Positions 30,515 to 60,887 of a stretch of DNA of 60,887 nt are shown piece after piece. The first letter of the stretch is position 1; the number at the start of each line of letters is the position of its first letter. The stretch spans positions 1 through 60,887 of IMG/VR virus record IMGVR_UViG_3300028196_000013. The stretch is one strand, 5' to 3'. The DNA is from a virus (taxonomy: Duplodnaviria; Caudoviricetes). A model generated the notes under the pieces. The model saw only the letters and a program-made list of their open reading frames with translations, searched no databases and was not told the DNA's origin. The position numbers and the translations under genes were made by a program.

Positions 30515-30542
30515 GGCCTCTGTGAAAGGAGGGTAACTGAAC

Positions 30543-30959
30543 ATGGATTGGATTGAATTACGAGACAATGTCAAACTTATTGACGAAGAAACGGAAACAC
30601 CATGGTTTGAATCGCCATTATTTGTATCATATGAAGAATGGGAGACTAAATGCCCATATGTATTGCTTTACTACGATGGCGAATTGAAGGGGAAAATAGA
30701 AGTTTACACCGATGTAAGCCATGAAACCCGTATGGAAACAAAAACCGCTGAATACATCATTTTGAATAACACGATGTATTACTTGAGCGATTTAGAAGAA
30801 GAAATTGATTGTGAGTGTATCACAACAGACATGGGTGGAAAATGCACCCATTGTTTGAGGGGACCAAGGGATGAGACATACATCACGATGGATGAGACAT
30901 ACATCACGATTGAGAATAAGTCGCCACCTAAACGCCGATTCGGGCGACAGAATATCTGA
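30543..30959 (+). CDS. Hypothetical protein
   Basis: CTGAAC|ATG start; stop in next motif. Confidence 0.75.
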   Translation: MDWIELRDNVKLIDEETETPWFESPLFVSYEEWETKCPYVLLYYDGELKGKIEVYTDVSHETRMETKTAEYIILNNTMYYLSDLEEEIDCECITTDMGGKCTHCLRGPRDETYITMDETYITIENKSPPKRRFGRQNI

Positions 30960-30961
30960 AC

Positions 30962-31336
30962 ATGACTGACAGAATACTATGGATGAATCCCTATGATGGG
31001 AAAGAATACGAAGTAGGCGAGACAATCCCGGTTTACCGAACGGGCGATGGAGGCCTCGTACACAATTCAACTGTTGTGAGACTTGAAGACCCAGGTTTCC
31101 CCGGTGTGGTGGAGATGAAGGATGGCGGGAGATACGAATACAATCATGGAATGGGTGTTGCCCAAGTTAAGAAGTGGTTGATCCCGGCGCTTGAGCCTGA
31201 TATGGATTGGTTCTACCTTGGTCCATCCGAGCAAGGATGGAGAATGTATTACGCAAGAAAAGAACTCAATAAGAGCAAAGCAATAGAAATGGCATCATTT
31301 AACGCCCTCGTGGGAGAAGATGATGAAGATAACTGA
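30962..31336 (+). CDS. Hypothetical protein
   Basis: CTGAAC|ATG start; stop in next motif. Confidence 0.75.
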   Translation: MTDRILWMNPYDGKEYEVGETIPVYRTGDGGLVHNSTVVRLEDPGFPGVVEMKDGGRYEYNHGMGVAQVKKWLIPALEPDMDWFYLGPSEQGWRMYYARKELNKSKAIEMASFNALVGEDDEDN

Positions 31337-31338
31337 AC

Positions 31339-31569
31339 ATGAAACATCTGAAAGACGCAAGATGGAGGGTATTGAAGGACTGGATAGATAATCCGGTCAT
31401 CTATACCCACAAAGAAATGAAGAAAATCGTAAAGCCAGCCTTGGTCACAAAAGAAAGTGATGTTAAGGCTAAGAAAAGACGATGGAACATAATTATGAAT
31501 CTCGAAATAGGACAAACATGGACCTACATCAACATGTCCGGAAAAACCACCTATACGAGAATTGACTGA
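31339..31569 (+). CDS. Hypothetical protein
   Basis: CTGAAC|ATG start; stop in next motif. Confidence 0.75.
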   Translation: MKHLKDARWRVLKDWIDNPVIYTHKEMKKIVKPALVTKESDVKAKKRRWNIIMNLEIGQTWTYINMSGKTTYTRID

Positions 31570-31571
31570 AC

Positions 31572-31832
31572 ATGGGACTTACAAATAGAAAACCGATAAA
31601 GGGCGTGAAGAAGGGTGACTCCATCACGACAAAGAAATTGAAAGAGCATAATCTGTTAAGGGATTCTCCCTTGACAAAGACCGTAAGAAGTTGGAAGGTA
31701 GAATCCGTGAAAATCTCGGATGTCAGCCTTACTAAGAAGAAGAAGATAATCGCCAAACAGAAAACGGTGATTGTTTTGACAAACGGTAAAGGCGAGAAAT
31801 TGAAGAGGACACGAACCTTTTGGATCAACTGA
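31572..31832 (+). CDS. Lys-rich hypothetical protein
   Basis: CTGAAC|ATG start; stop in next motif. Confidence 0.75.
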   Translation: MGLTNRKPIKGVKKGDSITTKKLKEHNLLRDSPLTKTVRSWKVESVKISDVSLTKKKKIIAKQKTVIVLTNGKGEKLKRTRTFWIN

Positions 31833-31834
31833 AC

Positions 31835-32788
31835 ATGAGAGCAAAAAGAAAAGTGACAAAGAAAAGAACACTGAAACCTTCTGACTTTCTGAAGCTGTGG
31901 ATAAATTATTGTGAGGAATTTCTATCGAGTTACTTAGGATATCCGATAGAAGACGAAATCACCGCAGAGACTCGAGATGAGTCATTCGGCATTTGGTTGC
32001 TGTCTACTCCTCACTTTAGCAAAGTCCCCACAAATAGCGAGTTGGAGACACTTGAAAAGGAGGAGCAAGAAGAACGACTACGAGCGATGGCGTTGGTGGT
32101 TGTGGCCGAATACTTCGGAACGGATATACTGGATTCAATCCCGTGTGTAGATGGTGAGAGTTTTGGCGACAAAGAGGCTTACGACAAGTTCTTTGAGAAT
32201 GAGGAGTGGGCTGAAGCAGCCATATTCTCAGAATTGATGCACGATGAAAGCGACCACCAGGTTCGTAGTTATCCGCATGACTCGAAGATTGACTTGGCAG
32301 ATGCGATTACAGAGAATGCAATTGCGCAGAACGCAGTCGACCTTTTGGCAAAGAAGGTAGAAGAGAAACAAACAGAAGAAGAAGCCATTCCTGACGAAGA
32401 GTTGGTTATTGGCCTCGCAGAAGAAACGGGCATTGAATATCCGGAGATACCTGCGGATGTCGATTCGTCTGTTGATGAATTTATGAGCGAAATCGAAGAA
32501 CATGTGCATGATGAAAATTGCATGCATTCGCATGAAGCGAAGGTTCCTGTAATTGCTCATACGCATGACGCTGTTCCTTGGGCGACCTTGGCGGCGATTG
32601 AAAAACACAAGAACGCTATTGCAAATAACGAGAATTCTGTCTTGGCCCTGGCTAACGGGGTTGAGGAACTTGTTGATAATGGAGGCGTTCAGACCAAGAG
32701 GGGATTGCTCGATGCGATCCTCATCTTGATAGAAGCAAAACCAGCAGAAGCCCTAAGAATTGTGGCGAGTTGGGAAAAATTGAACTGA
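31835..32788 (+). CDS. Acidic hypothetical protein
   Basis: Start reassigned to the CTGAAC|ATG (MRAKRK). Confidence 0.75.
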   Translation: MRAKRKVTKKRTLKPSDFLKLWINYCEEFLSSYLGYPIEDEITAETRDESFGIWLLSTPHFSKVPTNSELETLEKEEQEERLRAMALVVVAEYFGTDILDSIPCVDGESFGDKEAYDKFFENEEWAEAAIFSELMHDESDHQVRSYPHDSKIDLADAITENAIAQNAVDLLAKKVEEKQTEEEAIPDEELVIGLAEETGIEYPEIPADVDSSVDEFMSEIEEHVHDENCMHSHEAKVPVIAHTHDAVPWATLAAIEKHKNAIANNENSVLALANGVEELVDNGGVQTKRGLLDAILILIEAKPAEALRIVASWEKLN

Positions 32789-32790
32789 AC

Positions 32791-33024
32791 ATGGATAACA
32801 GAACAAAATTGAACCGAGATGGCGTATTGAAACTCAAGACTATCAATGCCCGAAAGGCTGGAAATGCGATTACAAAATTGATGATAAGGAATGCAACCAA
32901 AGCAGATAGAGAGGCGGTCTTATTGCGCCACGATGCAATTGGTAAAGCTCTTGATAATCTAATCAAAGAATTGAATACGACCGAAGTTCTCAAGTTAGAA
33001 CTGACACAAAAATACGAAAACTGA
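32791..33024 (+). CDS. Hypothetical protein
   Basis: CTGAAC|ATG start (MDNRT). Confidence 0.7.
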   Translation: MDNRTKLNRDGVLKLKTINARKAGNAITKLMIRNATKADREAVLLRHDAIGKALDNLIKELNTTEVLKLELTQKYEN

Positions 33025-33026
33025 AC

Positions 33027-33470
33027 ATGGCATTTAATCAACCGATTGACGGAAAAAATTGCGTGAAATACAAAATCGCAAAGACAAATCGACAAAGTTG
33101 TTTGCTGTGTGGCCATCCCATGTTTGAAGGAAGCATCGGAGTGTCTATGACAAACTCACATACTGAGGCTGTCAAATCAAAGAAAGCCAAATCAACAAAC
33201 CTGTGGTTACACGCAGAGTGCATGGCTCGACTCAGTAAAGAATTGAGGCGTGAAGACTTTGAAACAAACCAGCGAATAAACTTGAAAAAATGCACTTCGA
33301 AGAAACAATCGTGTATTTGGTGTGAAAAGAAAATTACACAAAGCATACAGATTGAGTTCAACAACAAAAATGACGCGATTACTTCAAAAAAATCGTTATG
33401 GATTCACAGAAAGTGCGCAAAAGAGATGGGAAGATCCCTCCACTGGAGGAATCGAAACCTGCCAAACTGA
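33027..33470 (+). CDS. Protein with two PARP-type-like Zn finger repeats
   Basis: Two CxxC...W(L/I)HxxC repeats. Confidence 0.65.
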   Translation: MAFNQPIDGKNCVKYKIAKTNRQSCLLCGHPMFEGSIGVSMTNSHTEAVKSKKAKSTNLWLHAECMARLSKELRREDFETNQRINLKKCTSKKQSCIWCEKKITQSIQIEFNNKNDAITSKKSLWIHRKCAKEMGRSLHWRNRNLPN

Positions 33471-33472
33471 AC

Positions 33473-33775
33473 ATGAGCATTAGAAAAATGGAAGAAGGTG
33501 AGAAAACAGTAACACTCCTGAAGCGCGAACATTTGATGAGTTTAGGCGTTCACGAAAGAACATGCAATCGTTTGATTGTGTCTTCAATAGGAATCGCAAG
33601 AGCGATTAGGGTGATTGAGGGTGCGTTCCCAATCCGTAGTGACTTTGAGGCGCTTCTCCTCAATATTTTGAAAGAAGCTTTGCATAAATCGGAAATGAGC
33701 CACATGGATGTGGATGTAAATGAAATTGAGGACCAGCAAGCTATCTACAAATCAGCGTGTAAGGCGCTTGAATGA
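33473..33775 (+). CDS. Hypothetical protein
   Basis: CTGAAC|ATG start (MSIRK). Confidence 0.7.
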   Translation: MSIRKMEEGEKTVTLLKREHLMSLGVHERTCNRLIVSSIGIARAIRVIEGAFPIRSDFEALLLNILKEALHKSEMSHMDVDVNEIEDQQAIYKSACKALE

Positions 33776-33782
33776 ACTGAAC

Positions 33783-34232
33783 ATGACAGAGAAAGAATAC
33801 ACTTGGACAAAGCTGATGGACGCTGTAGGAGACAGGGTGGACAAGCATCTTAACGATGCAATGATGGTCGACGGTAGAGACGATGGTTTGGACGGTTGGT
33901 TCAAACCTGCTGCAAATGGATGGGGAGGTTTCAGAATCGTAGAACCAAACACGATTGCAAAATGTCATGGATACACCATGGGGTTGAAAGAAGACCTCTA
34001 CAACGATCATACATACATCGCTCTTCCGCAAGAGAAGAAAAAACTGATTCCAGAAAAGGATACACTTTTCTTGCTGCTCGGGACTCTCAAGACCGGAGAA
34101 ACCGTTTACACACACTGGCTTGATGAAAGTGCGAGATTTGCACAAAAAGTCGCATGCGAATGGTGGGACAGCTCAGAAGGCGAGGTGTTGCAAGAATGGG
34201 GAATCAAATACGAGGATGTAGAAGAAAACTGA
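33783..34232 (+). CDS. Hypothetical protein
   Basis: CTGAAC|ATG start (MTEKE). Confidence 0.7.
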   Translation: MTEKEYTWTKLMDAVGDRVDKHLNDAMMVDGRDDGLDGWFKPAANGWGGFRIVEPNTIAKCHGYTMGLKEDLYNDHTYIALPQEKKKLIPEKDTLFLLLGTLKTGETVYTHWLDESARFAQKVACEWWDSSEGEVLQEWGIKYEDVEEN

Positions 34233-34234
34233 AC

Positions 34235-35239
34235 ATGGGATTTTGGAAAAAGAAAGAACCAGAAATAGTCGGGTCATGGGATGACGAAGAGGAAACTCCA
34301 GTGGTGGAAACCACGATGGAATCCGTGGAATTCGTTGACCAGCCCGAAACGAACCAAATACCCGTGCAAACGGTTGTAGTGAAAGGGCAAATGAGAGCCA
34401 CTGGATCTACGAGCAAACCAAGGAAAACGAAAAGCAAAGCGGAGATTGCAGCAGCACTGCCCATCAATGAAAGGATGCAACTGCTGATTGACTTCTATGC
34501 TGCTGTGTTGGCAGGGACAATCCCCTCCTTCATGGTGCAGGGTGGACCTGGCCTTGGAAAGACATACATTCTGCTTGAGATGTTCAAAAAACAAGGGTGG
34601 ATTGAAGGAAAGGATTACTTGATGATTAAAGCAGGTGTGTCGGCATTCGGTGTCTATGGCATAATCTGTAAATGGGCTGATAAGGCCGAGCAGGCAATCC
34701 AAGATGCAAAGAGCAAAGGTAACAAGGCATTCAAGCCGAAAATCCCTGTTCTTGTGTTTGACGATGTCCCGATGTTTAGTGCGGGTAAGGAACACCGCCT
34801 TACAGAAATTATCAAAGCTATGACTGATTCAACTTCTGGAGAGGAAGGCAGATTGGTCAGTTGGCGAACGAACAAAACCAAGGATGATCCTGCCGAGGCT
34901 AAAGCCGCAGGAACTTATCCTTCAGAAGTCCGCTACAAGGGCGGAGTAATCATCATCACAAACGAGGATGCCAAGAAAATCGACAAACCGATGCAAGACA
35001 GGTCGGGAGGTCCGTTATTCTTGACTGTGACTCAAGATGAAATGATTGAAAGAATGAAACTTCTTGCTCCTTCGATGGGGCCGAAAACGATGGACCCCAA
35101 GTTGAAACAGACTGTTCTCAACTGGCTGTGTTCGAGCGAATTCGAAGGAGAAGAACTGAGTATGCGAACATTACACAAGGCGCTGCTGATTGCAAACGCC
35201 AATCCAAAGAGATGGAAATCAATGTGCGTAATTCTATGA
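34235..35239 (+). CDS. AAA+-type P-loop ATPase
   Basis: Walker A GGPGLGKT; Walker B VLVFDD; sensor IIITN; DRS. Confidence 0.85.
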   Translation: MGFWKKKEPEIVGSWDDEEETPVVETTMESVEFVDQPETNQIPVQTVVVKGQMRATGSTSKPRKTKSKAEIAAALPINERMQLLIDFYAAVLAGTIPSFMVQGGPGLGKTYILLEMFKKQGWIEGKDYLMIKAGVSAFGVYGIICKWADKAEQAIQDAKSKGNKAFKPKIPVLVFDDVPMFSAGKEHRLTEIIKAMTDSTSGEEGRLVSWRTNKTKDDPAEAKAAGTYPSEVRYKGGVIIITNEDAKKIDKPMQDRSGGPLFLTVTQDEMIERMKLLAPSMGPKTMDPKLKQTVLNWLCSSEFEGEELSMRTLHKALLIANANPKRWKSMCVIL

Positions 35240-35247
35240 AACTGAAC

Positions 35248-35529
35248 ATGAGCAAGAATAAGAGGAACCGAAACGCGATAAAAACGATATTGGAGGGTAA
35301 GGAACTTACCACGATTGATGTCCACGACGCTCTAAATCTCAAATTTAGGCAAGGGCCGACGATGAACCAAGTGGGGAACTTGCTGTCAAGAATTCCAGAG
35401 GTTGAAAAAATCGGTATGATTGACATATCAACGAGGCGATTCAATCGCAGAACGACAACAAACTACAACAATTACAACAACTACACGGGACGAGTTAGAG
35501 TTGCTTTGTGGAGAATGAAAACAGACTGA
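35248..35529 (+). CDS. Winged-helix protein, paralog of 55323..55562 (DUF3860-like)
   Basis: GPTMNQVGNLLSR vs GTTSQQLGNVLAK. Confidence 0.6.
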   Translation: MSKNKRNRNAIKTILEGKELTTIDVHDALNLKFRQGPTMNQVGNLLSRIPEVEKIGMIDISTRRFNRRTTTNYNNYNNYTGRVRVALWRMKTD

Positions 35530-35531
35530 AC

Positions 35532-35849
35532 ATGACGGACGAACGAACAGATGAAGAATTCATAGCCGAAGTCATTCGAAGAGGGAAGCAAAAACCCGAA
35601 GAGTGGAAATTAGAAGAACTGATTAGATTGTATGATATCCCCGAAAACGAGTTAGAATTAGTGCTTGCCATGGAAGGGAGAGAAGGACTTCTTACGATCG
35701 GGCACTATACTCGCATCGAAGTTAGAGGTTGCACCAACAAGTTGTGTGACGGAAAGGAAAGAAAGCCATGTAGGCTTCTCCAATACATTGAGACCTGTAC
35801 AAAGTGCTTGGTTAGAATTGGAGATGTGCCAAATAGCGCATGGGAATGA
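35532..35849 (+). CDS. Hypothetical protein with Cys cluster
   Basis: CTGAAC|ATG start (MTDER). Confidence 0.7.
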   Translation: MTDERTDEEFIAEVIRRGKQKPEEWKLEELIRLYDIPENELELVLAMEGREGLLTIGHYTRIEVRGCTNKLCDGKERKPCRLLQYIETCTKCLVRIGDVPNSAWE

Positions 35850-35856
35850 ACTGAAC

Positions 35857-36087
35857 ATGTCTAAGAACGATATTGATGTAGGAATAATCCTTCAAAAAGA
35901 AGAATTGAAAGAATTGATTGAAGCGATCTCCGCAGCACAATTTATTTCGAACATGATGGTATTCCCGACAAACCAAAGGGCTGAACTTAATGAGGTCATG
36001 GAGAAATGGGAAAACGAGGAAATGGGAAAAAAGGTATGGGCGCATTTGGGTGTATTACAAGAAGTGCTTGATAACGAAACAAACTGA
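35857..36087 (+). CDS. Hypothetical protein
   Basis: CTGAAC|ATG start (MSKND). Confidence 0.7.
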   Translation: MSKNDIDVGIILQKEELKELIEAISAAQFISNMMVFPTNQRAELNEVMEKWENEEMGKKVWAHLGVLQEVLDNETN

Positions 36088-36089
36088 AC

Positions 36090-36434
36090 ATGACAATTCA
36101 ACATATTGATAAGTCGAAGAGACTGCAAGTATTGGCAAGAGCGATCTTTGAATCGAAGAAGGAAAAGACCGAAGCCAGCAGAGCAGTAAAAAGAATTGAA
36201 GACGAAATAAAGAAGTACGAAGAGGAAGTCAAAGGACTTCTCGGGAACGGGATTGGAGGATATAGCCACCATCTCCTCGAGGAAAAGATTGACAGTAAAA
36301 TCATAGGGATTGCAATTGGAAGCATCTCTGGAGGAAACCATTGGCAACCGCATTGGGAGAAACCGACAGTCGTTTTGGCGACTGCGAAATACCTGAATGG
36401 GAAGGGCTTGTCAAGCAAGCCTAAAAATGATTAA
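36090..36434 (+). CDS. Hypothetical protein, coiled-coil N-terminus
   Basis: CTGAAC|ATG start. Confidence 0.7.
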   Translation: MTIQHIDKSKRLQVLARAIFESKKEKTEASRAVKRIEDEIKKYEEEVKGLLGNGIGGYSHHLLEEKIDSKIIGIAIGSISGGNHWQPHWEKPTVVLATAKYLNGKGLSSKPKND

Positions 36435-36435
36435 C

Positions 36436-36651
36436 ATGCCACGAAATGTATCAAACCCGTTACGAAGAGGAACGCCGAAACCCAAAGTGGGTGAAGTGGC
36501 TAAAGTAATCGGCGGCGATGGGCCATTTCCTATGAATGAATTTGTAGAGGTTCTGTCAAAGCAATCCGGCGGGCAATATTTAGTGGAATCTCTCATTACA
36601 GGAGTGGTCGCCACTGTAAAAGGTAGTTGCCTTTTACCCGCAAAAAACTGA
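36436..36651 (+). CDS. Small SH3-like beta protein
   Basis: Variant junction GATTAAC|ATG; PKVGEVAKV pattern. Confidence 0.6.
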   Translation: MPRNVSNPLRRGTPKPKVGEVAKVIGGDGPFPMNEFVEVLSKQSGGQYLVESLITGVVATVKGSCLLPAKN

Positions 36652-36653
36652 AC

Positions 36654-36962
36654 ATGGAATTCATTATTGCAAAGAATTACTGGAATGAAATGAACCAAGA
36701 CGGAACGGAAGTAAAAGTAATCAATGTGTTGAAATTTGATAAAATGGAGTGGGGTTATCTTCATGGTGAAAATGAAATTCCCCTCATACCCAAATTCGAT
36801 TTAATTGACACAATTTATTTTGAAACGGAGGCTGAGAGAGAAAAAGAGTGGAATCTTATGAAAGTTGATGGATACACCAGCGTAAACGACTTTCAACCTC
36901 CAGCATATACACATGACCATGCGAGCAGTCTAAGAGAGGCTGTTACGGGAAAGGGAAACTGA
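36654..36962 (+). CDS. Hypothetical protein
   Basis: CTGAAC|ATG start (MEFII). Confidence 0.7.
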   Translation: MEFIIAKNYWNEMNQDGTEVKVINVLKFDKMEWGYLHGENEIPLIPKFDLIDTIYFETEAEREKEWNLMKVDGYTSVNDFQPPAYTHDHASSLREAVTGKGN

Positions 36963-36964
36963 AC

Positions 36965-37558
36965 ATGCCAACACAATACCATGATGGAAGAATATTTAGA
37001 TTGAGAGCAGACCCCGTTTACGGGAGTGAGATCACTCTTAAAATCACAGAAGAAGAATTACAAGCATTGCGGCAAATTGACCAAGAACAAATTGGAGGAA
37101 AGCAGCGCAGAGGCTTGGGATTGCTGATTGATTTTTTGATTACGGGTTCAACGAATCCAGCACTTGACCGGCTTATGCCGAATGTGCAGGCAAGGACTCA
37201 TGATGTCGAAACATCTCGAGCAGCAATTCCGAATTCGAAGAGATGGACGCAAAACCTTCACGATGCATACCAGATAATTGCTAAAGGGGAAGGACTTACA
37301 GATGAAGAAGCGCAAGACATTTACGCTCGAGCGCATCAAATTGACCGCAGGGACATCGGAAATCGATGGAGGCCTGCCAGAGTAGCCTTGGTGGCCATTG
37401 GTGCCGTGAAAAATACTGGGAGAAAGCGTCGAGTGCGTTCACAAAGGGAGGCAATCGTTTGGGCCGCAGTGGATGACACTTGGGCACCGCCGCAGATAAA
37501 TGAGACTATTCAAAAAGAACAAATCCTTGAGATGTTAAACAGAATCGAGGAAGAATGA
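36965..37558 (+). CDS. Hypothetical protein, probable winged-helix C-terminal half
   Basis: GLTDEE..RPAR..L...G.V..TG..R..AIVW pattern. Confidence 0.6.
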   Translation: MPTQYHDGRIFRLRADPVYGSEITLKITEEELQALRQIDQEQIGGKQRRGLGLLIDFLITGSTNPALDRLMPNVQARTHDVETSRAAIPNSKRWTQNLHDAYQIIAKGEGLTDEEAQDIYARAHQIDRRDIGNRWRPARVALVAIGAVKNTGRKRRVRSQREAIVWAAVDDTWAPPQINETIQKEQILEMLNRIEEE

Positions 37559-37565
37559 ACTGAAC

Positions 37566-38747
37566 ATGACAACAATGGAAAATAAAACTCATTGTGCATG
37601 GTGTCGTAGGGGATTGGGCGAGAAAAACCGAGGGAAAGGAATCGGACCCGAGTGTAAAACCAAACTTCCCGACACCATCAATGTCGCTTTGTTAAACAGA
37701 AGTGAACACGGGTATCACGCAAGATCCCATGAAGCAAATGATTTGCATGATGCTTTCAAGCATTTTGGAGATTCAGTTGACATACTTATTTTCGCTGACA
37801 CTGATGGATTCGGTGTGCAAAGCGAGGAATGGCAAGGTTGGGAGACTTACTTCAAATCCGAGGATGGAATCATTTGTATTGACTCCAATTTATCAAGATA
37901 TGAAGGAGAAGCTATGCCCGCAGTTGCAGATGAAGTGGCAAAATGGAGAAGAAGGGTTGCAGTTATGTGTGACCCCAATACGACTACGAAAGTTGAACTT
38001 GTTCACATAGATTCCGATTTGGGATACTTGATGAACAGAGGATTCTATAACGGACCCTATCCGATAGGCATGGACCTTAAGGAATGGGCGACAGAAATAT
38101 ACGGAATTGACTCGAGTAAGATCCCTCAATGTATGGGATGCGGCTTGATGCAACACCGGCTTGAAGAAAAATCCCTCGATGAAGAGGAGATTGAACTTGT
38201 TCAGCAGATGATTGAGCAAGCTGACCTACGATTTGGGCACACTTTGTTCTGCAGAGTGATGCGAAATCATAGAACACAATTGGAGGAGATGCTACAGACT
38301 AAATGGGCTTACCTCAGTGACATCACGCAAGACCCCCTAAATGATGGTTCAAAGGCTTTCATCGGAGGTCCGCAACATTATGATTGGAGTGAATCTTACG
38401 AACATTTTTACGAAACAAACATTGTAAGAGCAGGTGAACTGGTGTGGGATAGCGAATATGGGAGACGAGTATTCGAATACTGCTTGTTGCCGTATCTGAT
38501 GAAAGGATTGTCTAAGGCCTACCATGATGATTGGGAACCTGCCGATGAATGGAGCCATGATTACGAGGGATACCTCGACCATAGCCTTCCGTTTTGGGCA
38601 GGAGAAGCGACCCAACACGGCAGATGGTGTTCCGAGGATTCAGATTTGAAAATTCGGGACGGTCTTATCATGGACATGGCGGAATATTATCCGCATTCCT
38701 ATGGTGGAGTGCTGCTGTCCAATGGAAAAGCAGCCGAAGATAACTGA
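37566..38747 (+). CDS. Protein with N-terminal DUF6011-like Zn finger
   Basis: CAWCRRGL...GIGPEC. Confidence 0.65.
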   Translation: MTTMENKTHCAWCRRGLGEKNRGKGIGPECKTKLPDTINVALLNRSEHGYHARSHEANDLHDAFKHFGDSVDILIFADTDGFGVQSEEWQGWETYFKSEDGIICIDSNLSRYEGEAMPAVADEVAKWRRRVAVMCDPNTTTKVELVHIDSDLGYLMNRGFYNGPYPIGMDLKEWATEIYGIDSSKIPQCMGCGLMQHRLEEKSLDEEEIELVQQMIEQADLRFGHTLFCRVMRNHRTQLEEMLQTKWAYLSDITQDPLNDGSKAFIGGPQHYDWSESYEHFYETNIVRAGELVWDSEYGRRVFEYCLLPYLMKGLSKAYHDDWEPADEWSHDYEGYLDHSLPFWAGEATQHGRWCSEDSDLKIRDGLIMDMAEYYPHSYGGVLLSNGKAAEDN

Positions 38748-38749
38748 AC

Positions 38750-39187
38750 ATGACTGATAGAAAATTTAGAAATAGAGTGCAAAAAGCACGAGAAATGAGA
38801 GAAGAAATTCGAAAAAACAGATTCCTCGGATTAGACGGAGACGGCGCAGTGATTCAAGACAGGAGTGAGGAATTGAATAATTTACTTGCCTTGAATAAAC
38901 ATATGAGCGAAGTCCAAATAGAATTTGGAATTAGTCCCGACGATCTTAATCATCTTAGCGAGGGAAATGCTTTGATTGAGGACATGTGTGCCACCAAAGT
39001 ATCGTTTGATGGCAAGAATTGGGATGTCGTCGTCAATGAAAAGAAACTTGAGGCTCAAGGGAAAGAAATAACCAAACTGGAAAACAAGCTTAAGAAACTC
39101 TTGAAAAAAGAGGAATTATGGGGCTCGCTGGACGCCGATGACGAGATTATGGTAATCGCACTACAAGGCGGGTTGTCTAATAGTTGA
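38750..39187 (+). CDS. Hypothetical protein
   Basis: CTGAAC|ATG start. Confidence 0.7.
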   Translation: MTDRKFRNRVQKAREMREEIRKNRFLGLDGDGAVIQDRSEELNNLLALNKHMSEVQIEFGISPDDLNHLSEGNALIEDMCATKVSFDGKNWDVVVNEKKLEAQGKEITKLENKLKKLLKKEELWGSLDADDEIMVIALQGGLSNS

Positions 39188-39196
39188 AAACTGAAC

Positions 39197-40231
39197 ATGA
39201 CACTAAGATTACCAGTGATTAGAAATGAGCCGATTCGCAAAGAATCAATAGGCAAAAATGGAGAGATAATCCCGAAGGCTAACTTTGATGTGGTCTTTGC
39301 GAGAATCGGAGGTAACAACAAGACAAGTGACAATGTCACAGATACGACGAGAGGGTGTAGCGGCGGCTGTTATGGCTGTTATGCTGCACGCTCCATGGGT
39401 GTATTCCAGGGTCGGAGAAGATTTGACCAACCAGAGTCGCAATGCGTGTGTCACGAGATGGTACAGCACGACCTGTTGGAGATGGTGCGAAAAGAACCGT
39501 TTCTTGACTGGGTCCGCAACGGTGTGATGGGTGATCCATCGCTCGATTGGGACAATGCCGTTCGGCTTACAGAAGCCGCAGGCCGAGTCGGAATAAGAAC
39601 TGTGATTATCAGCAAGTTCTGGAACATCCCTACGGATGAACACTTGATGAGGATGGCCCTTGCTGGCGCTATTCTGCATTTCAGCTTGATACCGGGCTAC
39701 GAATGGGCTCCGGATTTGAAGGTTGCACGCAGGCCAGACGGAAACCGTGTTAGGAACATCATGAGTGCGCTTGTTGCATTTGATAAAATGACGAGGCCGA
39801 GTAAAGCCAAGGAATCAGATTCCGTTTACATGAGAATCTGTTCTGCGGACTTTAACATGGACCACGAAGAAGGCGCTTTGCTTGGGCACACCCAAACATT
39901 CTTCAAGAAATTTGCAGTAAAACAGGGATTCCGTATATTGGAAACCCCGTGGAAATTTGAAGGTAAGAGCGACCCCCGATGGGAATACCTCAATCATGAG
40001 AACATGAATAGAACAAAGTCATACACAACTGGTGGCGCAGGACGCAAGAAAACTGCAGGTCCTTTGCTGGCAGCCGATGGCTTTGACAAATACTCGGAAT
40101 GGAAACCGTTCGTTATTGCTTGCGACACTACATGTGATGTGTGTCCAAACCAATGCGGGACTGTTGATTCTGAAAATGGAGCCAAAATTCGCTTGATGAT
40201 TCAAAAAGGCGAAACGATAGGCAGAAACTGA
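39197..40231 (+). CDS. Radical SAM-like protein
   Basis: GCSGGCYGCYA (CxxxCxxC); RNGVMGDPS; C-terminal CxxxCxxCxxxC. Confidence 0.7.
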   Translation: MTLRLPVIRNEPIRKESIGKNGEIIPKANFDVVFARIGGNNKTSDNVTDTTRGCSGGCYGCYAARSMGVFQGRRRFDQPESQCVCHEMVQHDLLEMVRKEPFLDWVRNGVMGDPSLDWDNAVRLTEAAGRVGIRTVIISKFWNIPTDEHLMRMALAGAILHFSLIPGYEWAPDLKVARRPDGNRVRNIMSALVAFDKMTRPSKAKESDSVYMRICSADFNMDHEEGALLGHTQTFFKKFAVKQGFRILETPWKFEGKSDPRWEYLNHENMNRTKSYTTGGAGRKKTAGPLLAADGFDKYSEWKPFVIACDTTCDVCPNQCGTVDSENGAKIRLMIQKGETIGRN

Positions 40232-40233
40232 AC

Positions 40234-40638
40234 ATGGTATTGACTGTAAACGAAGAAAAACAGAGAATGTGGGTGGTTAAGGCAGATGGTTCTGCTATCA
40301 CTCAAGACGAATACAAGAAATTAGGGGCCAAACTCACGGTATATCTTGGGGGGCCGGCGAATTCAAACTGGGAAATAGGAATGGATCACTGGGACACAGT
40401 ATCTCCGATTCATATCAAGCCAGTAAAAATAGAACGAGAACACCACGAAGGAATGTTCTCGGACTTGACCGAGGCGATTTACCTTTGCGGACAGAAAGGA
40501 TACGAAATTTTTGGTATCCTGGAGTGGAAAGAGTCAGGAAACTGGCATGACGAACACTTCAGAGTCCAGGTATTCGAGAAAACGGGGTTCATCCAGATCT
40601 ACAAGATGAAAATTGCGTATGAACCATATGAAGACTGA
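40234..40638 (+). CDS. Hypothetical protein
   Basis: CTGAAC|ATG start. Confidence 0.7.
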   Translation: MVLTVNEEKQRMWVVKADGSAITQDEYKKLGAKLTVYLGGPANSNWEIGMDHWDTVSPIHIKPVKIEREHHEGMFSDLTEAIYLCGQKGYEIFGILEWKESGNWHDEHFRVQVFEKTGFIQIYKMKIAYEPYED

Positions 40639-40640
40639 AC

Positions 40641-40823
40641 ATGAATAAGAAAGATATATTGAGACCGATATTCGGAACAATAGCGTTCCAACCATTTGCA
40701 TATATGTGGGCATTATCAACAGGCGCTCCGTTTTGGACGGAGATTGGGCCTTTTGTGGTTTATTCCACTGTGGTATTCATTCCAATATATGCAATGTATG
40801 AGAAATATTATCCGACAAACTGA
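40641..40823 (+). CDS. Small two-TM protein
   Basis: CTGAAC|ATG start; hydrophobic. Confidence 0.7.
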   Translation: MNKKDILRPIFGTIAFQPFAYMWALSTGAPFWTEIGPFVVYSTVVFIPIYAMYEKYYPTN

Positions 40824-40825
40824 AC

Positions 40826-41392
40826 ATGCCTTACAAGGATGAATCGAATGAAATCATCAACAGGATGAAAGACAAACAAAATGAGAAAGTCAAAACCATT
40901 AGCATTTCGTTACCGGGATTGAGAGTTCCTCGAGTTTGGATGGAAAGACGCTGGGCGACTTTGAGTAGTCTCGCAGACCAACCATCTTACATCAACACGG
41001 TTGGTGCAAAGCATGAAGCGACAATACGGGATGCTGAAAAGCTGTTAAACCGGAAAAAAACAATGAATGATTTCATTGAATTTATGGAATTTGACATTGA
41101 GGAATACTTCGAAATGGTAACTGAGATTCGTGACTACACGAAAAAGGTGAACTCAAAGGAAGTGAAAGCCAATTATCAAGAATACATGACCGTAATCAAT
41201 TCTATTTTGATTGCATACGGGCACAAATTCGGATTGGTAGAGCCGAGCGTTGAAGAATGGCTCGCAAGAGAAGATGATACGGAAACTGATTACAGCGGAA
41301 GACAAAAGAAAAGGTCTGCAGATGATCCTCACATGAGAAATGTGGTTGGAGAAGGCGGACTTTTCCCTTGGACATTTTCCGATAGATACTGA
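40826..41392 (+). CDS. Hypothetical protein
   Basis: CTGAAC|ATG start. Confidence 0.7.
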   Translation: MPYKDESNEIINRMKDKQNEKVKTISISLPGLRVPRVWMERRWATLSSLADQPSYINTVGAKHEATIRDAEKLLNRKKTMNDFIEFMEFDIEEYFEMVTEIRDYTKKVNSKEVKANYQEYMTVINSILIAYGHKFGLVEPSVEEWLAREDDTETDYSGRQKKRSADDPHMRNVVGEGGLFPWTFSDRY

Positions 41393-41394
41393 AC

Positions 41395-42246
41395 ATGAAT
41401 AAGTCGTTAAAATTGAGACTATGGGAATATCTGAAAGAGAACAAATCAACTTTGTTTGAAATCTATGAGGAATTCTCAAATGAAAAAGAAACAACGATTC
41501 GTGGTCGCTTGAACGAGAACCTTGGTTCTTGTTTCAAAAGACTGGGGCGTGGCATTTACATTGCTACAGATGGTGAAATCACCGCAGTATTCCTTGAAGG
41601 GGATGCTCGGAAGATTGTCCAAACCCTTGAAGATGAAAGCATTGATGCAATCATTATGGATTCGCCGTATAGCGCTCTCGACAAGCAAATGACTGTCGGA
41701 AGTACGCGTCAGCGAAACCTCGATGGGGGCTGGGGATTCCAAACTTGGGATCTTGATGAGGCATTCTTGAAAGATCTGTATCGGGTAATGAAGCCAGGAG
41801 GACACATGTTCTCATTCATGCCCGCAGCAAAAGCGGACACGGTAGATTACAATCACAATCAAGTTCTACTTGCACGAAAGGCAGGTTGGAGATTTCAAGC
41901 GACATGGGTATGGGACAAAGTGCTGTTAGGGATGGGTTATACCGGACGCTGTCAACACGAATTGATTCACTTTTTCTCTAAAGGAAAGAGGAGATTCCCG
42001 CTTAGCTTGAAGATAACAGATGTGAGAAAGCACCAAAGGGAGCATAGTAGCAAAAAGATTCACCAAACGCAGAAGCCTGTAGGTTTGATTGCTGACATTA
42101 TCGAGTTCAGCACAGATTTAGGTGATGTAGTGTTAGATCCTTTTGCTGGCTCAGGCTCAACTGCAGCAGCAGCACTCCAGACAAATAGGAATTCTATTTC
42201 TATCGAACTGGATGGTGCGATGCTTGCAAAGGCGTGTGGAAACTGA
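41395..42246 (+). CDS. N6-adenine/N4-cytosine DNA methyltransferase (beta class) with N-terminal HTH
   Basis: DSPY catalytic motif before VLDPFAGSGST; HQTQKP. Confidence 0.9.
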   Translation: MNKSLKLRLWEYLKENKSTLFEIYEEFSNEKETTIRGRLNENLGSCFKRLGRGIYIATDGEITAVFLEGDARKIVQTLEDESIDAIIMDSPYSALDKQMTVGSTRQRNLDGGWGFQTWDLDEAFLKDLYRVMKPGGHMFSFMPAAKADTVDYNHNQVLLARKAGWRFQATWVWDKVLLGMGYTGRCQHELIHFFSKGKRRFPLSLKITDVRKHQREHSSKKIHQTQKPVGLIADIIEFSTDLGDVVLDPFAGSGSTAAAALQTNRNSISIELDGAMLAKACGN

Positions 42247-42248
42247 AC

Positions 42249-42545
42249 ATGGCAACGACTAATGATTTGAAGATAGCCGCCGAAATTTTAGGCTACGGAG
42301 ACGATTACGCACATTACATGGGTAAATACAATGGACGATTTTACCACAAGGGATTTGCGATAAGTTATGATGGAACACCAAGAAGTGAAAGAAAGCTGTT
42401 TGAGATACTGAAAGAAAACGGCTGTGATGATTTGGGGCAACCCGACCAAAGAGATTCGTTGGGACTGGGGGCAGTGCTTTCATGGAACCGTGATAGGTTC
42501 GATGATGCAGATGACCCTGAGAAACCCGATGAAGAGGAAGAATGA
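42249..42545 (+). CDS. Hypothetical protein
   Basis: CTGAAC|ATG start (MATTN). Confidence 0.7.
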   Translation: MATTNDLKIAAEILGYGDDYAHYMGKYNGRFYHKGFAISYDGTPRSERKLFEILKENGCDDLGQPDQRDSLGLGAVLSWNRDRFDDADDPEKPDEEEE

Positions 42546-42552
42546 ACTGAAC

Positions 42553-42780: not shown

Positions 42781-42787
42781 ACTGAAC

Positions 42788-42979: not shown

Positions 42980-42981
42980 AC

Positions 42982-48190: not shown

Positions 48191-48192
48191 AC

Positions 48193-49701
48193 ATGAAAAA
48201 ACAATGTAAGAATTGTGGAAAGAAACTGAATGATGAAGTTTCGCTAAAGAGGGGTTTCGGGCCAGAATGCTGGAATAAGCAAAAGGCCAAAGGAACTCTT
48301 CCAATCTTAATTACACTCGCAACTGGCGTCGAGAAACTCGATTATGAGCTGTTCAATCAGCGTTTGCCAGGGGGGGAAAGTTGCGATTTTGTAATCGCAA
48401 TCAACGCCCAAGACATTTTTCCCGCTACCTACAACAGCGGTTACGCTACAGGCGGTTTGGATGTCGAAGATAAAATCAACTCAGAGTGGAAGGGTCCAAG
48501 GGATTTTTACGCTTGGATGGTTGATCAGATAGTGACGACTCATGTAATGGGTAGCTGTGAAATTGTCCTGTATGGGAGAAAGACACAAATCCCGGAAAAT
48601 ATATTGCCGGAACTACCCCCTAATATGATGGGAAAGAAAAGCGAAGCATTAACTGATTTTGAAGAAACTTGGGAGCCACTATTGATGTGGAACTCAAAGC
48701 GAATCGAACTCATGTCTCTCAAAGCGAAGGCATGGGAAATGAAAAATGAAATGGTCAGACTCGTGAAAGAGACTGTGTTTAACACAGGCACGATGTTCAT
48801 CGATGATGGCTACGAAGAGGAAGAGTTACTTTGGGAGAAAAATATGTACGAATATGGGACAGATGATTGGTATCCTACAAATGAATTTGGGAATTGGATT
48901 GAAGGCGATAAAAATCGTTTTTGGAAAGAAAACCCACACTTTTCTTTTTTGAAAAGAAAAATAGAGTCAACGAATGTCGTGTTAAAAGTATCAGATGATA
49001 TGATGGACATCATAATTGGAGATCGTTGGCAAGAATCACATAAAGCACAAATGATTGAATGGGCGGAACATGAAAGATACGCACGAGACATGGCGATCCA
49101 TGACACCTCCGATTTCTTGGAAGCTGAATTACCCATTGAAGAATGGGAAAAAGACTGGTATGAAAATCCGTACAGATGGTTAAACAGAGATTACATTTGG
49201 ATGGAACACTCTTGGGACGACCTCTCGATGGAAGACCAAGAAGAATTAAGAATGGCATCTTTATTTTCATTCTCAAGTGACCTGACAGCAATCTGGGCAG
49301 AACTTGAAATGACGAGGGATGCAAGCAAAGACGCATGGGAAGGGCCTATTGAAAAATATAGGTCGGAAACCGAAGACTCGATTATCACGCAAAGCATCAA
49401 GATTGGCCTATGGCGAAAATTCTCCGGGGACCTACAGAAAACTTTGGAGAGTCAAGAACAAGCCAACCGTGACACAGAGTATATGGAATGGTGGGACGAT
49501 GATACTGGTAATGAAAGGAACCTGATGTCGGTCCTCGTAAACAACGAAGGCGACCCTTACAATAATGAGGGGTATGACATAATGGCTCAAAATCATGTGA
49601 AGTCTGCGTTGAAAAGAATCATAAAAGAAAGTTTGACTTTGATTGAAAAAAGTATCCTCAAGATGGATATTGAGATATTCGAGTTTGACGATTATAACTG
49701 A
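48193..49701 (+). CDS. Acidic protein with N-terminal DUF6011-like Zn finger
   Basis: CKNCGKKLNDEVSLKRGFGPECW; CTGAAC|ATG start. Confidence 0.7.
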   Translation: MKKQCKNCGKKLNDEVSLKRGFGPECWNKQKAKGTLPILITLATGVEKLDYELFNQRLPGGESCDFVIAINAQDIFPATYNSGYATGGLDVEDKINSEWKGPRDFYAWMVDQIVTTHVMGSCEIVLYGRKTQIPENILPELPPNMMGKKSEALTDFEETWEPLLMWNSKRIELMSLKAKAWEMKNEMVRLVKETVFNTGTMFIDDGYEEEELLWEKNMYEYGTDDWYPTNEFGNWIEGDKNRFWKENPHFSFLKRKIESTNVVLKVSDDMMDIIIGDRWQESHKAQMIEWAEHERYARDMAIHDTSDFLEAELPIEEWEKDWYENPYRWLNRDYIWMEHSWDDLSMEDQEELRMASLFSFSSDLTAIWAELEMTRDASKDAWEGPIEKYRSETEDSIITQSIKIGLWRKFSGDLQKTLESQEQANRDTEYMEWWDDDTGNERNLMSVLVNNEGDPYNNEGYDIMAQNHVKSALKRIIKESLTLIEKSILKMDIEIFEFDDYN

Positions 49702-49708
49702 ACAATTA

Positions 49709-49738
49709 GCTTAAGGGTGCGAAGGCGTAATAGATTGA
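49709..49738 (+). promoter_or_regulatory. Putative internal promoter, copy 2
   Basis: GCTTAAGGGTGCGAAGGCGTAATAGATTGA between two CTGAAC motifs; TATA-like CTTAAG. Confidence 0.5.
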
Positions 49739-49744
49739 CTGAAC

Positions 49745-59102: not shown

Positions 59103-59104
59103 AC

Positions 59105-59440
59105 ATGATAGATGGAAAAACGATAGCCGACATGGTGTTCTTAATGGAAACATGGAACATGAATAATGGAACAGATGGATTTATTGATTTCTATGCAAAT
59201 CACCATCCGAATTGCCGATACGACGAAGAACAGGTTGAAGATTTATTGAACTTGGGAAGTATGATGGAAGCATGGCCGGATAAGTGGATGCAAGAGCAGT
59301 ATCAAAGATGGTTCAAAAACGATGACAGATTTTTGACAATGTTTCAATATTGTGCAGCGGATGGTCGAGGACTATTCACCAACTGGTTGCAAAAGATTGG
59401 AAAAGCGCAGAAAGTGATTGAAGATATCGCTGGAAACTGA
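59105..59440 (+). CDS. Hypothetical protein
   Basis: CTGAAC|ATG start. Confidence 0.7.
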   Translation: MIDGKTIADMVFLMETWNMNNGTDGFIDFYANHHPNCRYDEEQVEDLLNLGSMMEAWPDKWMQEQYQRWFKNDDRFLTMFQYCAADGRGLFTNWLQKIGKAQKVIEDIAGN

Positions 59441-59442
59441 AC

Positions 59443-59829
59443 ATGGATAATTGGCTGAATACAAGAGCAGGAAGGGATTTCTCAATGAGAACCATTCCTG
59501 ATATGACGAAAGCGATGAACAGATTGGCAGATGCCTTACTTGTTCAAAACGATTTGACAATAGACGAAAGGCAACCAGTAGATCGCCCGACACTCGAAGA
59601 TATTGTAGAGTCGGAACGAGACTGGGAGGGTGATGCGAAATTGCTCTACACAGCGTTAAGCAGAATGCACCAAGCGGACAATGAAGACATGGAAATTGCT
59701 ACAGAAATGGCGTTTGATGTATTATCAAGCGTCTCAATGGATTTCCGAAACGAATACGCAGCCTACACATGGGAACGCTGTGGGATGAATACTATCTTTG
59801 TTTCCCGACGAACACAAACGATGAGATAA
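59443..59829 (+). CDS. Hypothetical protein
   Basis: CTGAAC|ATG start. Confidence 0.7.
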   Translation: MDNWLNTRAGRDFSMRTIPDMTKAMNRLADALLVQNDLTIDERQPVDRPTLEDIVESERDWEGDAKLLYTALSRMHQADNEDMEIATEMAFDVLSSVSMDFRNEYAAYTWERCGMNTIFVSRRTQTMR

Positions 59830-59836
59830 ACTGAAC

Positions 59837-60004
59837 ATGGTAAAATGGAGCGACGGACATCCGAGAAAAACAATCATGAACAAAATCATCAATGGGAAAC
59901 TTCCCTATGATTGCCCCGGTTGTAAGCGGGCTAAATGGTTTGAACCACTTGATGACGGGAAGTGGTCTTGCCCGAAATGCAAGACAATATTGGAATTTGA
60001 CTGA
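59837..60004 (+). CDS. Small Zn-ribbon protein (55 aa, not in ORF track)
   Basis: CPGC..CPKC; motif at both ends. Confidence 0.65.
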   Translation: MVKWSDGHPRKTIMNKIINGKLPYDCPGCKRAKWFEPLDDGKWSCPKCKTILEFD

Positions 60005-60006
60005 AC

Positions 60007-60297
60007 ATGACGATAAAGTTGACAAAAAAGAATCTAAAAAAATTAGCTAAAAAAATGAAAGATGCAGACCCCGAACTTATGGATGAGTCAGCAACACATC
60101 GTTCTTCTGCAATTGCAGAATTCGGACGGGTCCACTTTAGCGAATATTTTGAATTTGTTCCTGCGCCCGATGCAGACGACAATCTAATGGAAGCAGACTG
60201 CAACGCCAAAATAACCGGATACACAATAAACGGAATTTACTTTTCAGAAGAAGAAGTAAGGACCATAGTACGGCTGCACAGCCCGCATAGAAACTGA
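60007..60297 (+). CDS. Hypothetical protein
   Basis: CTGAAC|ATG start. Confidence 0.7.
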   Translation: MTIKLTKKNLKKLAKKMKDADPELMDESATHRSSAIAEFGRVHFSEYFEFVPAPDADDNLMEADCNAKITGYTINGIYFSEEEVRTIVRLHSPHRN

Positions 60298-60299
60298 AC

Positions 60300-60887
60300 A
60301 TGGAAGACGAAGAAAAAAGAGATTGGCAAAATTGGAATAAAAACAATCGACACCCATTCAGCCAGAAGAATGACTTTTGGACACCGAATGAAGTGTTTAA
60401 TGCTCTTGAAGATAGATTCGGACCTTTTGAAGTAGACCTTGCAGCAAGTGATGAGAATCATCTCGTTGACAAATACTACACTATTGACGACAATGCCTTG
60501 CTAATGGAGTGGAATGGCACCGCTTGGTGCAACCCACCGTATGTGAAGCAAGCAGACAAAACCACGCTGAAACATTGGATAACGAAAGCCCGTGAATCAG
60601 TAATTGAGGGAGACGCCCACAGAATTGTAATGCTGATCCCTGCATACACCTCAAATGGATACTGGCACACGGAAATTTTCCCGTATGCTTCGCATCTCAT
60701 TTTTTTTAGATACCGCCTTGATTTTGGTGGACCATTTCAAAGAACTGGCGGAGCTTCGAGGCAACCTTCTGTTGCTGTTGTTTGGTCAAAGGTGTGGAGT
60801 GGAGCCAGCACGCAATTGCTGACAATGTCAAACAAAGGTGAATGGCTGACCGAAGAGGTTTGGGATAGAGAATTGCTTTCCCTGCGT
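60300..60887 (+). CDS. dam: Phage-type Dam N6-adenine DNA methyltransferase (3' partial)
   Basis: My translation: FWTP..FGPFEVDLAAS..AWCNPPY..VMLIPA; runs off the window end. Confidence 0.88.
   Translation, partial: MEDEEKRDWQNWNKNNRHPFSQKNDFWTPNEVFNALEDRFGPFEVDLAASDENHLVDKYYTIDDNALLMEWNGTAWCNPPYVKQADKTTLKHWITKARESVIEGDAHRIVMLIPAYTSNGYWHTEIFPYASHLIFFRYRLDFGGPFQRTGGASRQPSVAVVWSKVWSGASTQLLTMSNKGEWLTEEVWDRELLSLR

Follow-up and report, generated by a model that had tools for sequence, protein, structure and literature searches.

A seven-nucleotide word fused to the start codons of a 70-gene array in an uncultured marine virus: a candidate gene-start boundary signal

The array and its start-codon word

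The window analysed here is the whole of IMG/VR record IMGVR_UViG_3300028196_000013, a linear stretch of 60,887 nucleotides (nt) with a completeness estimate of 48%. Its downstream part carries an array of genes of which 70 open with the same short word, (A)ACTGAAC, set directly against the start codon (written ACTGAAC-ATG below), and one with a variant of it (Table 1). Exact matches to CTGAACATG number 72 in the window, 71 on the + strand and one on the - strand, against a mean of 1.06 and a maximum of 4 in 100 dinucleotide shuffles. The + strand copies comprise 70 spread across 30537-60302 and one more at 26810. Every copy in the array opens a reading frame, and the 70 motif genes account for 97.2% of 30543-60887, in what is likely an early or accessory region of the genome. 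The consensus is (A)ACTGAAC-ATG(R), and of its 70 sites 68 have A at -7, 55 have A at -8, and all have C at -1 and A at +1. Upstream of -8 the 70 window sites hold no conserved information, none at -35 to -20 either, and no signal resembling a TATA box or a B recognition element was found ahead of these genes, where intergenic room is absent. The canonical archaeal promoter box, 23-30 nt upstream, is missing at these 70 sites and is seen only at 17 sites of the distant relative G010. As for the lone - strand copy, it is best taken as a chance occurrence of the kind that the shuffles predict; a start of the TFB-like gene at this copy was considered and rejected, since the frame is wrong.

At 50 of the 69 junctions in the window the upstream gene stops at the TGA of the motif itself, leaving a gap of 2 nt, and wherever the stop falls inside the motif the C-terminal residue of the preceding protein is N, D, Y or I. 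The remaining junctions have gaps of 6-17 nt (15 cases) or larger ones (43, 219, 371 and 3208 nt). The array genes start exclusively with ATG, the codon that leaderless translation requires, although ATG formed part of the search pattern.

Shine-Dalgarno (SD)-like 4-mers at -17 to -5 precede 5 of the 70 array genes; random positions within the array have one in 15.5% of cases, and of 33 putative starts outside the array 16 have one. Genes outside the array carry SD sequences of the GGTGA/GGAGG type, which fits a prokaryotic, here archaeal, host. Nor does SD-led initiation describe the word itself, which stands at zero spacing from the ATG and varies between relatives. Among those relatives, the array of G006 contains about 16 same-strand open reading frames (ORFs) that lack the motif, several of them with a clear SD, and no SD was found at the first array genes of G001 and G007. 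In archaea, first cistrons are leaderless and operon-internal cistrons are SD-led; by this rule the genes led by the motif act as first cistrons do, and those led by an SD as internal ones do.

Most of this anatomy had been described in an earlier note, made from the sequence alone, that reported some 70 genes opening CTGAAC-ATG plus the copy at 26810, the TGA of the motif as the usual upstream stop with a 2-nt gap and N, D, Y or I protein ends, the lack of intergenic room and the lack of a recurrent SD. The exact counts bear it out on each of these points, and the comparison with expectation that it had proposed gives 71 copies on the + strand against about one by shuffling; because motif counts, junctions and coverage all agree, we regard its description as correct.

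Table 1. Features of the window, with positions, strand and the basis of the assignment
Feature	Position	Strand	Basis
Gene array, 70 genes opening (A)ACTGAAC-ATG and one with a variant motif	30537-60887	+	motif-started ORFs
Array gene with variant motif, TGATTAAC-ATG (ATG at 36435), filling an apparent 219-nt gap	36427-36653	+	
Motif copy outside the array; starts gene 26816-27334, its TGA terminating the upstream ORF 26556-26813	26810-27334	+	
Lone reverse-strand CTGAACATG, out of frame within the TFB-like gene	24409-24417	-	
ACTGAAC, then AGGGG plus 8 nt, then the ATG of a gene for a 649-amino-acid (aa) protein, 27358-29307 (order motif, SD, ATG)	27338-27357	+	
Abundant non-coding RNA adjoining the unit array on its upstream side	29548-29838	+	metatranscriptome contigs
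Stem-closed non-coding units of two kinds, each ending CCA, separated by ACTTAAC-A-ACTGAAC	29891-30460	+	fold z = -6.05
tRNA-Arg(TCT), with ACTGAAC plus 6 nt in front and CTTAAC behind	30312-30388	+	
Hairpin then T8, 20 nt before the first array gene; AGGAGGG between hairpin and motif	30461-30523	+	
ACTGAAC followed by 371 nt of structured non-coding sequence within the array	45350-45725	+	
ACTGAAC, 37-nt non-coding mini-unit, next ACTGAAC-ATG	49697-49744	+	
Serine recombinase, in all four compared genomes, without link to the motif	9999-10823	+	
TFB/TFIIB homologue, N-terminal Cys pairs and two cyclin repeats	23513-24520	-	Pfam and profile
Four tandem AACTTAAC copies in the control region	25637-25672	+	
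DpdA/TGT-like (Atlas score 0.93-0.97), PAPS-reductase-fold, radical-SAM-like, two DNA methylases	39197-40231, 44263-45354, 46746-47867, 41395-42246, 60300-60887		

Alleles of the word and turnover of the genes

The main relatives compared are the genomes G001, G006, G007 and G010, of which G001 was found with a two-copy pattern of the motif. Among viral contigs the two-copy pattern hit 11 loci, of which L003, from G001, carries an array; in L001, L005 and L010 the copies are closely clustered and resemble tandem repeats, the other loci hold 2-4 copies, and the whole records behind L002, L007, L008 and L009 hold 2-7. The same pattern in cellular genomes (species collection) gave 47 single scattered hits in unrelated taxa, about 34 being estimated by chance, and no arrays. 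No relatives were recovered with the 649-aa protein, nor any in the phage collection with a 465-aa protein.

G001 contains 44 copies of the window's word, all on one strand, and its proteins are 21-63% identical to those of the window, with a syntenic core. Two complete genomes with terminal repeats use other words: G006 (128.8 kb) has ACTGACC-ATG 60 times (60-61 motif copies), and G007 (127.6 kb) has ACCGCTC-ATG 87 times and ACCACTC-ATG 11 times (98-104 motif copies). In the window and in these three genomes the copies always lie on the coding strand and abut the ATG. Two shorter loci behave alike, L060 with 35 copies of ACTGACC and L057 with 30 of nCGCTC, and one array protein led to 71 metagenome loci, in 62 of which a hexamer stands against the ATG four times or more; the nine without such a hexamer are all shorter than 4 kb.

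The alleles met so far are CTGAAC, TTGAAC, TTTGAC/TTTAAC, CTGACC, CTGATC and CCGCTC/TCGCTC, with two neighbouring alleles present together at some loci. On a tree of one array protein (54 rows, quick search, midpoint root), the five commonest alleles need six changes, where four is the minimum and shuffled labels need 29.4 on average; the word is thus a stable lineage character that occasionally switches across an entire array. CTGAAC itself is found in three clades of this tree, one of them nested among CTGACC clades, and the sister clades of G001 and L060 have words that differ by one base. No protein stands out as co-varying with the allele among the conserved proteins of the four genomes. 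The word is not tied to the upstream stop. In G001 this stop usually lies 8-10 nt before the ATG. Although the motif is intact, a gap of 2 nt or less is the exception in the relatives, with 3 cases among 43 junctions in G001, 4 among 59 in G006 and 3 among 100 in G007. G001 rarely uses the TGA inside the motif and ACCGCTC contains no stop at all; the stop codon within the window's word is incidental.

The more distant G010 (140 kb) has longer junctions, and 17 of its genes open with GGTTCACAG-ATG behind a conserved 56-nt module that places a GAATTACA box at -29 to -22. In parts of this genome (L053-L054, for example at 80570-80700) a hairpin is followed by CATAGAG, the box, CATAGAA, a second box and GGTTCACAG-ATG, that is, box-N15/16-CAYAG in tandem. 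A second conserved signal near starts was also seen in G007 (L031 19140-19230, L032 185-362), where two tRNAs and the next gene of the core strand are preceded by GGYTGAACC and exactly 14 nt; GGYTGAACC contains the window's word CTGAAC.

The order of homologous array genes differs between the window, G001, G006, G007 and L060, whereas the core modules remain collinear. Blocks of nucleotide homology run from 7-8 nt before an ATG to the end of the gene, that is, over single genes, and a variant strain switches to a different gene immediately past the motif and ATG at 42985. Taken together, the shuffled order, the homology blocks and this variant show gene-by-gene turnover with breakpoints at the motif. 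The earlier note had suggested comparing relatives for just such reordering, and the comparison returned it, with one breakpoint (42985) located at the motif. The turnover could proceed by microhomology between the identical 10-12-nt junctions or through the conserved serine recombinase. We met neither imperfect inverted repeats of the attC type nor a tyrosine integrase, the serine recombinase being the only recombinase found and the junctions measuring 2-12 nt, and no junction of an excised circle was seen in the one contig mapping able to show such joints.

RNA pieces, RNA genes and gene content of the family

Four metatranscriptome runs from four studies contain 21-54% of the window's sequence words. 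Their contigs were mapped onto 29501-49500, and the results below concern the longest 32 of the 139 pieces, 31 of which lie in the array; places without RNA cover were left out of the evidence. None of the 31 array contigs crosses a junction with at least 31 nt on both sides, where random placement of pieces of equal lengths leads one to expect 19.8 crossings, and none of 20000 such trials gave as low a number; a 21-nt overhang at an ATG was seen in one contig. Single genes are filled nearly from end to end by pieces of up to 1075 nt, such as 44275-45349 in gene 44263-45354. In several runs the contigs tend to begin 12-23 nt past the ATG, as at 37583, 37584 and 37585, and the ends of these pieces lie about 0-70 nt from junctions, exact ends and 5' chemistry being beyond the resolution of contigs. 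Branching of the assembly graph at variable junctions may also break contigs, but it would do so at the motif rather than inside the gene. By crude contig depths, neighbouring array genes differ several-fold, and depth above the hairpin-T8 exceeds that of the array, which is consistent with read-through from an upstream promoter. In three RNA runs contigs end at 37504-37506, one of them with an adapter; this RNA end lies inside gene 36965-37558, 53 nt short of its stop and immediately ahead of an ACTATTC.

The word is also used without a start codon. On the + strand, 19 copies of CTGAAC lack an ATG, and eight of them precede non-coding units or a tRNA, mostly in 29893-30300, where the spacers of the non-coding array measure 15 nt. 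In G001 and G006 the CCA end of a tRNA passes directly into a variant of the motif plus ATG. With copies ahead of a tRNA and non-coding units, the motif is more than a translation signal. The non-coding RNA upstream of the unit array reaches contig depths of 195 and 28 in two of the runs (X18 and X15), and adapters abut 29548 and 29553. Rfam gave no match for 29548-29890, even at E<=10 on the short stretch, and an impression by eye that this RNA resembles RNase P was dropped for that reason. Searches of G001, G006 and G007 with nhmmer and blastn for homologues of the non-coding RNA (29548-29838) or of the unit array returned tRNA only.

Several other repeats were noted in and around these regions. 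The second kind of non-coding unit (four copies, 29953-30455) carries GGAGGGAGG, a strong SD-like word, inside a stem-closed RNA ending in CCA; that such an RNA could in principle bind the ribosomal anti-SD is pure speculation. In G009 (L047, 3958-4183) a tandem repeat of 24-27 nt with CCACCTAACAAC recalls the spacer CCACTTAACAAC of the window, and may be coding. Between the TFB-like gene and the array, the window (24533-24992) and G001 (L013) have 4-7 copies of a unit of about 65 nt that recurs about every 135 nt and in which AT-rich, partly palindromic sequence follows the core CCGATGGC; they may be an origin or an array of promoters or operators.

The virus probably infects a marine group II archaeon. 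A homologue of one conserved protein, on a 127.9-kb contig, is labelled Euryarchaeota archaeon, and the window sequence is present in marine DNA runs of 13 studies, among which its own source may be one. Most window proteins lack a known family. The TFB homologue matches Pfam TFIIB at E 1.8e-4, a match that fell below the cut-off, and with a profile built from it and three homologues, chains of TFIIB and of Pyrococcus TFB are hit at E 1e-10 to 2e-9. An RpoA''-like protein of 843-844 aa (RNA polymerase Rpb1 domain 5), a thermosome and a resolvase are encoded in G006 and G007, as well as a TFIIS zinc ribbon that forms part of a 2464-aa ORF. G007 (L033, L034, L036), G006 and G009 have giant ORFs with several domains (983-2947 aa), one combining DUF5824, an ATP-dependent DNA ligase and a TFIIS ribbon and another a guanylate kinase and DUF7831; a search of the giant G007 proteins for a hidden polymerase by DxDxD gave only two weak hits. 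The collinear core of all four genomes includes a small GTPase-like protein (15337-16086 on the - strand of the window) with GxGKT, DIGGH and NKAD motifs and a weak Arf hit. The array itself includes genes for DNA methylases and for DpdA/TGT-like, PAPS-reductase-like, radical-SAM-like and PCNA-like proteins; judged from these sequences, the modification genes together suggest 7-deazaguanine and methyl modification of the viral DNA.

Neither Pfam nor PHROGs revealed a capsid family in the window, and no capsid, portal or terminase family was found in any genome examined. As far as the source is covered here, magrovirus group D, associated with marine group II archaea and defined by a PolB gene, has thermosome, resolvase and RNA polymerase A genes and no capsid module, its nature being given as undetermined (Philosof et al. 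2017, PMC5434244). The viruses described here resemble that account of group D in being marine, in lacking recognisable capsid genes and in encoding thermosome, resolvase and RNA polymerase A genes (G006, G007), but differ from it in that PolB was found in G010 and not in G006 or G007.

Readings of the word and related systems

We tentatively favour the reading that the heptamer is a gene-start boundary signal from which separate leaderless mRNAs arise by sequence-specific RNA cleavage. The observations behind it are the motif statistics and the allelic variation of the word, its occurrence ahead of RNA genes, array genes that lack SD, and the RNA contigs of the array, none of the 31 examined crossing a junction. 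The lineage-specific word would fix the 5' boundary of each RNA unit at, or a few bases from, the AUG, so that each array gene would stand on its own leaderless mRNA without an SD, and the same signal would separate the tRNA and the small non-coding RNAs. The array would be transcribed from upstream as long precursors, and a sequence-specific factor, presumably encoded by the virus and evolving along with the motif, would cut these at each copy. As a by-product, the shared junction of 10-12 nt would make each gene an exchangeable cassette. The cleavage, the exact position of the cut and the existence of the factor are what we infer; cleavage explains the missing junction RNA, the absent promoters and terminators and the array of non-coding units in one step. 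The earlier note had offered cleavage into leaderless mRNAs as the first of its models, and it remains the best fit to the contigs that do not cross, the ATG-only starts, the lack of SD and the RNA genes, but an initiator promoter has become a serious rival to it.

Several results weigh against cleavage. RNA contigs give neither exact ends nor strand nor 5' chemistry, the evidence covers 32 of the 139 pieces, and one contig outside these 32, from the variant strain, does cross the junction at 42985 through motif and ATG. Runs of T5 or longer, at which archaeal RNA polymerase can terminate, show no avoidance in the arrays (21 observed and 14 expected in the window), which argues against very long transcripts; their avoidance had been tried as a sign of one long transcript and was not seen. 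No RNase family was detected by Pfam (E<=0.005) among 71 window and 99 G007 array proteins, most of them without any family. A guide RNA bearing the anti-motif was likewise not found and is rejected as a candidate, given that reverse complements of the motif fall within coding sequence and are no commoner than chance predicts, with 8 in the window and 13-16 in relatives. The remaining points on this side are those that favour transcription starts, and are best set out with that alternative.

The strongest alternative, which we consider possible though rather unlikely, is an initiator-type core promoter at which transcription begins at the A of the ATG at every copy and stops before the next. 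The RNA polymerase would be that of the host, reprogrammed by the viral TFB and by the RpoA''-like and TFIIS-like proteins, or else a viral one that has escaped recognition, and the word would co-evolve with the viral factor. That the family encodes homologues of all three transcription proteins speaks for it, as does the fact that in every plausible functional copy a C precedes the boundary and the next base is a purine (A or G), as at a transcription start. The GAATTACA box of G010 is promoter-like and stands at the usual TATA distance from its 17 GGTTCACAG-ATG sites, the tandem box-N15/16-CAYAG arrangement adding to the likeness; the tolerated T-runs, the several-fold depth differences between adjacent genes and the ATG-only starts, which suit leaderless initiation, fit promoters as well. 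However, the 70 window sites have no upstream box, and 15 operon-internal genes of G010 open with CCATAG-ATG without the GAATTACA box. There are no terminators in the array, and no room for them, yet the RNA contigs stay within the junctions, whereas promoters alone should give nested read-through RNAs. The 15-nt spacers of the non-coding array would put a pre-initiation complex on the previous unit, with no TATA-like element to hold it. Finally, neither G006 nor G007 yielded an Rpb2-like subunit at E<=1, and hence a complete viral polymerase is not in evidence.

A polycistronic RNA that stays intact, on which the motif acts as a termination-reinitiation signal or loads ribosomes independently of SD, is improbable. 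Almost all stops lie within 17 nt of the next ATG, and AGGAGGG stands upstream of the window's first array gene while the later genes lack SD, and both observations speak for this reading. The first array genes of G001 and G007, however, have no SD to begin with, the stop inside the motif is dispensable, and the word varies among relatives, which pairing with a conserved rRNA would forbid; moreover, the motif also precedes tRNA and non-coding units, and the RNA contigs do not bridge junctions. The corresponding model of the earlier note is disfavoured on these grounds, with the TGA serving as stop at 3 of 43 junctions in G001, ACCGCTC free of stops, and the RNAs discontinuous.

We give a small probability to the motif being primarily a DNA crossover core of a cassette array, through site-specific or microhomology recombination, with expression secondary. 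Array order differs among relatives around a collinear core, the homology blocks correspond to single genes, the strain variant at 42985 changes gene right behind motif and ATG, and the serine recombinase is conserved in four genomes. But the conserved stretch is only 7-11 bp long, without dyad symmetry or a second half-site, the recombinase is not tied to it, no circle junction was seen, and neither the zero spacing to the ATG nor the purine at +1 is explained. Of the cassette model put forward in the earlier note, the shuffling and the breakpoint have thus been seen, but the zero spacing and the use before RNA genes point to an expression signal, recombination being likely a by-product. Least probable is that the word is a leader-joining or template-switching site like the transcription-regulating sequences (TRSs) of nidoviruses, another suggestion of the earlier note, or a DNA-level mark (methylation, 7-deazaguanine or a primase site): it formally resembles TRS cores, two DNA methylases and a DpdA-like enzyme are among the array products, and most alleles share a G at -4, but the four RNA runs show no leader-body joints (the only joint is a 52-nt skip within a gene, and contigs may miss rare forms), ACTTAAC, ACCACTC and TTTAAC lack that G, and a DNA mark has no need to abut ATG on the coding strand.

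The systems closest in form are the poxvirus TAAATG, the baculovirus TAAG, the mononegavirus gene-start signals, the promoter repeats of halovirus HF2 and early RNA processing in phages. The late initiators of poxviruses (TAAATG) and baculoviruses (TAAG) work with complete RNA polymerases of the viruses' own, have intergenic room and give read-through transcripts. Like them, the array marks the starts of many genes with a short invariant word at the ATG, and its virus supplies transcription components of its own; unlike them, it has junctions of 0-12 nt, a single detected RpoA''-like polymerase subunit, an archaeal host, and a word that changes between close lineages. Early polycistronic RNAs of phages are processed by RNase III in T7 and by RegB at GGAG in T4, and MazF makes leaderless mRNAs at ACA, enzymes of its type reading single-stranded words of 3-7 nt and being able to leave a 5' AUG. 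The cleavage proposed here would be similar, with long early transcripts cut at recurrent sites into separate messages, but the window junctions have no hairpin, no MazF/PemK, RegB or other RNase family was found, and 70-100 genes per genome are punctuated. Mononegavirus gene-start and gene-end signals and nidovirus TRS cores belong to RNA genomes copied by an RNA-dependent RNA polymerase; they share with the array a conserved, lineage-specific word of 6-10 nt at every gene junction, whereas here the genome is double-stranded DNA and no leader is seen joined to a body. Integron arrays consist of co-oriented promoterless cassettes with a recurrent site, an attC palindrome and a tyrosine integrase. 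They resemble the array in gene-by-gene reshuffling at a recurrent site, and ACTTAAC fits the inverse core RYYYAAC, but here there is no imperfect palindrome of attC length and no tyrosine integrase, and the site abuts the ATG instead of following the ORF. The promoter-carrying intergenic repeats of HF2 are described, in the portion of the source drawn on here, as AT-rich and 29-58 bp long (PMC8707807). On that description both are conserved repeats before many genes of an archaeal virus, and the 56-nt module of G010 resembles the HF2 kind, but the window signal measures 7-8 nt, lacks an upstream element and in many cases overlaps the stop codon of the preceding gene.

A search of the full-text literature found no description of a start-codon word of this kind, nor of comparable RNA processing in archaeal viruses, in agreement with the earlier note, which knew of no matching system; the main texts of three magrovirus papers, as far as they were covered, mention no start-codon motif (PMC5434244, PMC10160649, PMC11706807). 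No compared system has all the features seen here, where a 7-nt word is fused to the ATG in 60-100 copies, the junctions measure 0-12 nt, the alleles follow lineages and the virus is archaeal, and there is a realistic chance of something new in mechanism. In its boldest form, which we think doubtful, the finding would represent viruses with reprogrammable RNA punctuation, in which a virus-encoded, possibly RNA-guided factor dices early transcripts of 30-45 kb into 70-100 leaderless mRNAs and small RNAs.

The setting is an abundant group of uncultured marine archaeal viruses that also encode homologues of TFB and of an RNA polymerase subunit, and the motif offers a simple marker with which to recognise this family in metagenomes and to call its genes. 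If the boundary reading is true, it would provide a defined entry point for studying the production and use of leaderless mRNAs in archaea, would point to a new factor that reads RNA or DNA in a sequence-specific manner, and would offer an explanation for the rapid gene-by-gene turnover of viral early regions. If the word does act as punctuation, one short sequence would couple expression, host-independent translation and gene exchange; the early genes would then be plug-and-play cassettes, and a changed word would isolate lineages from one another.

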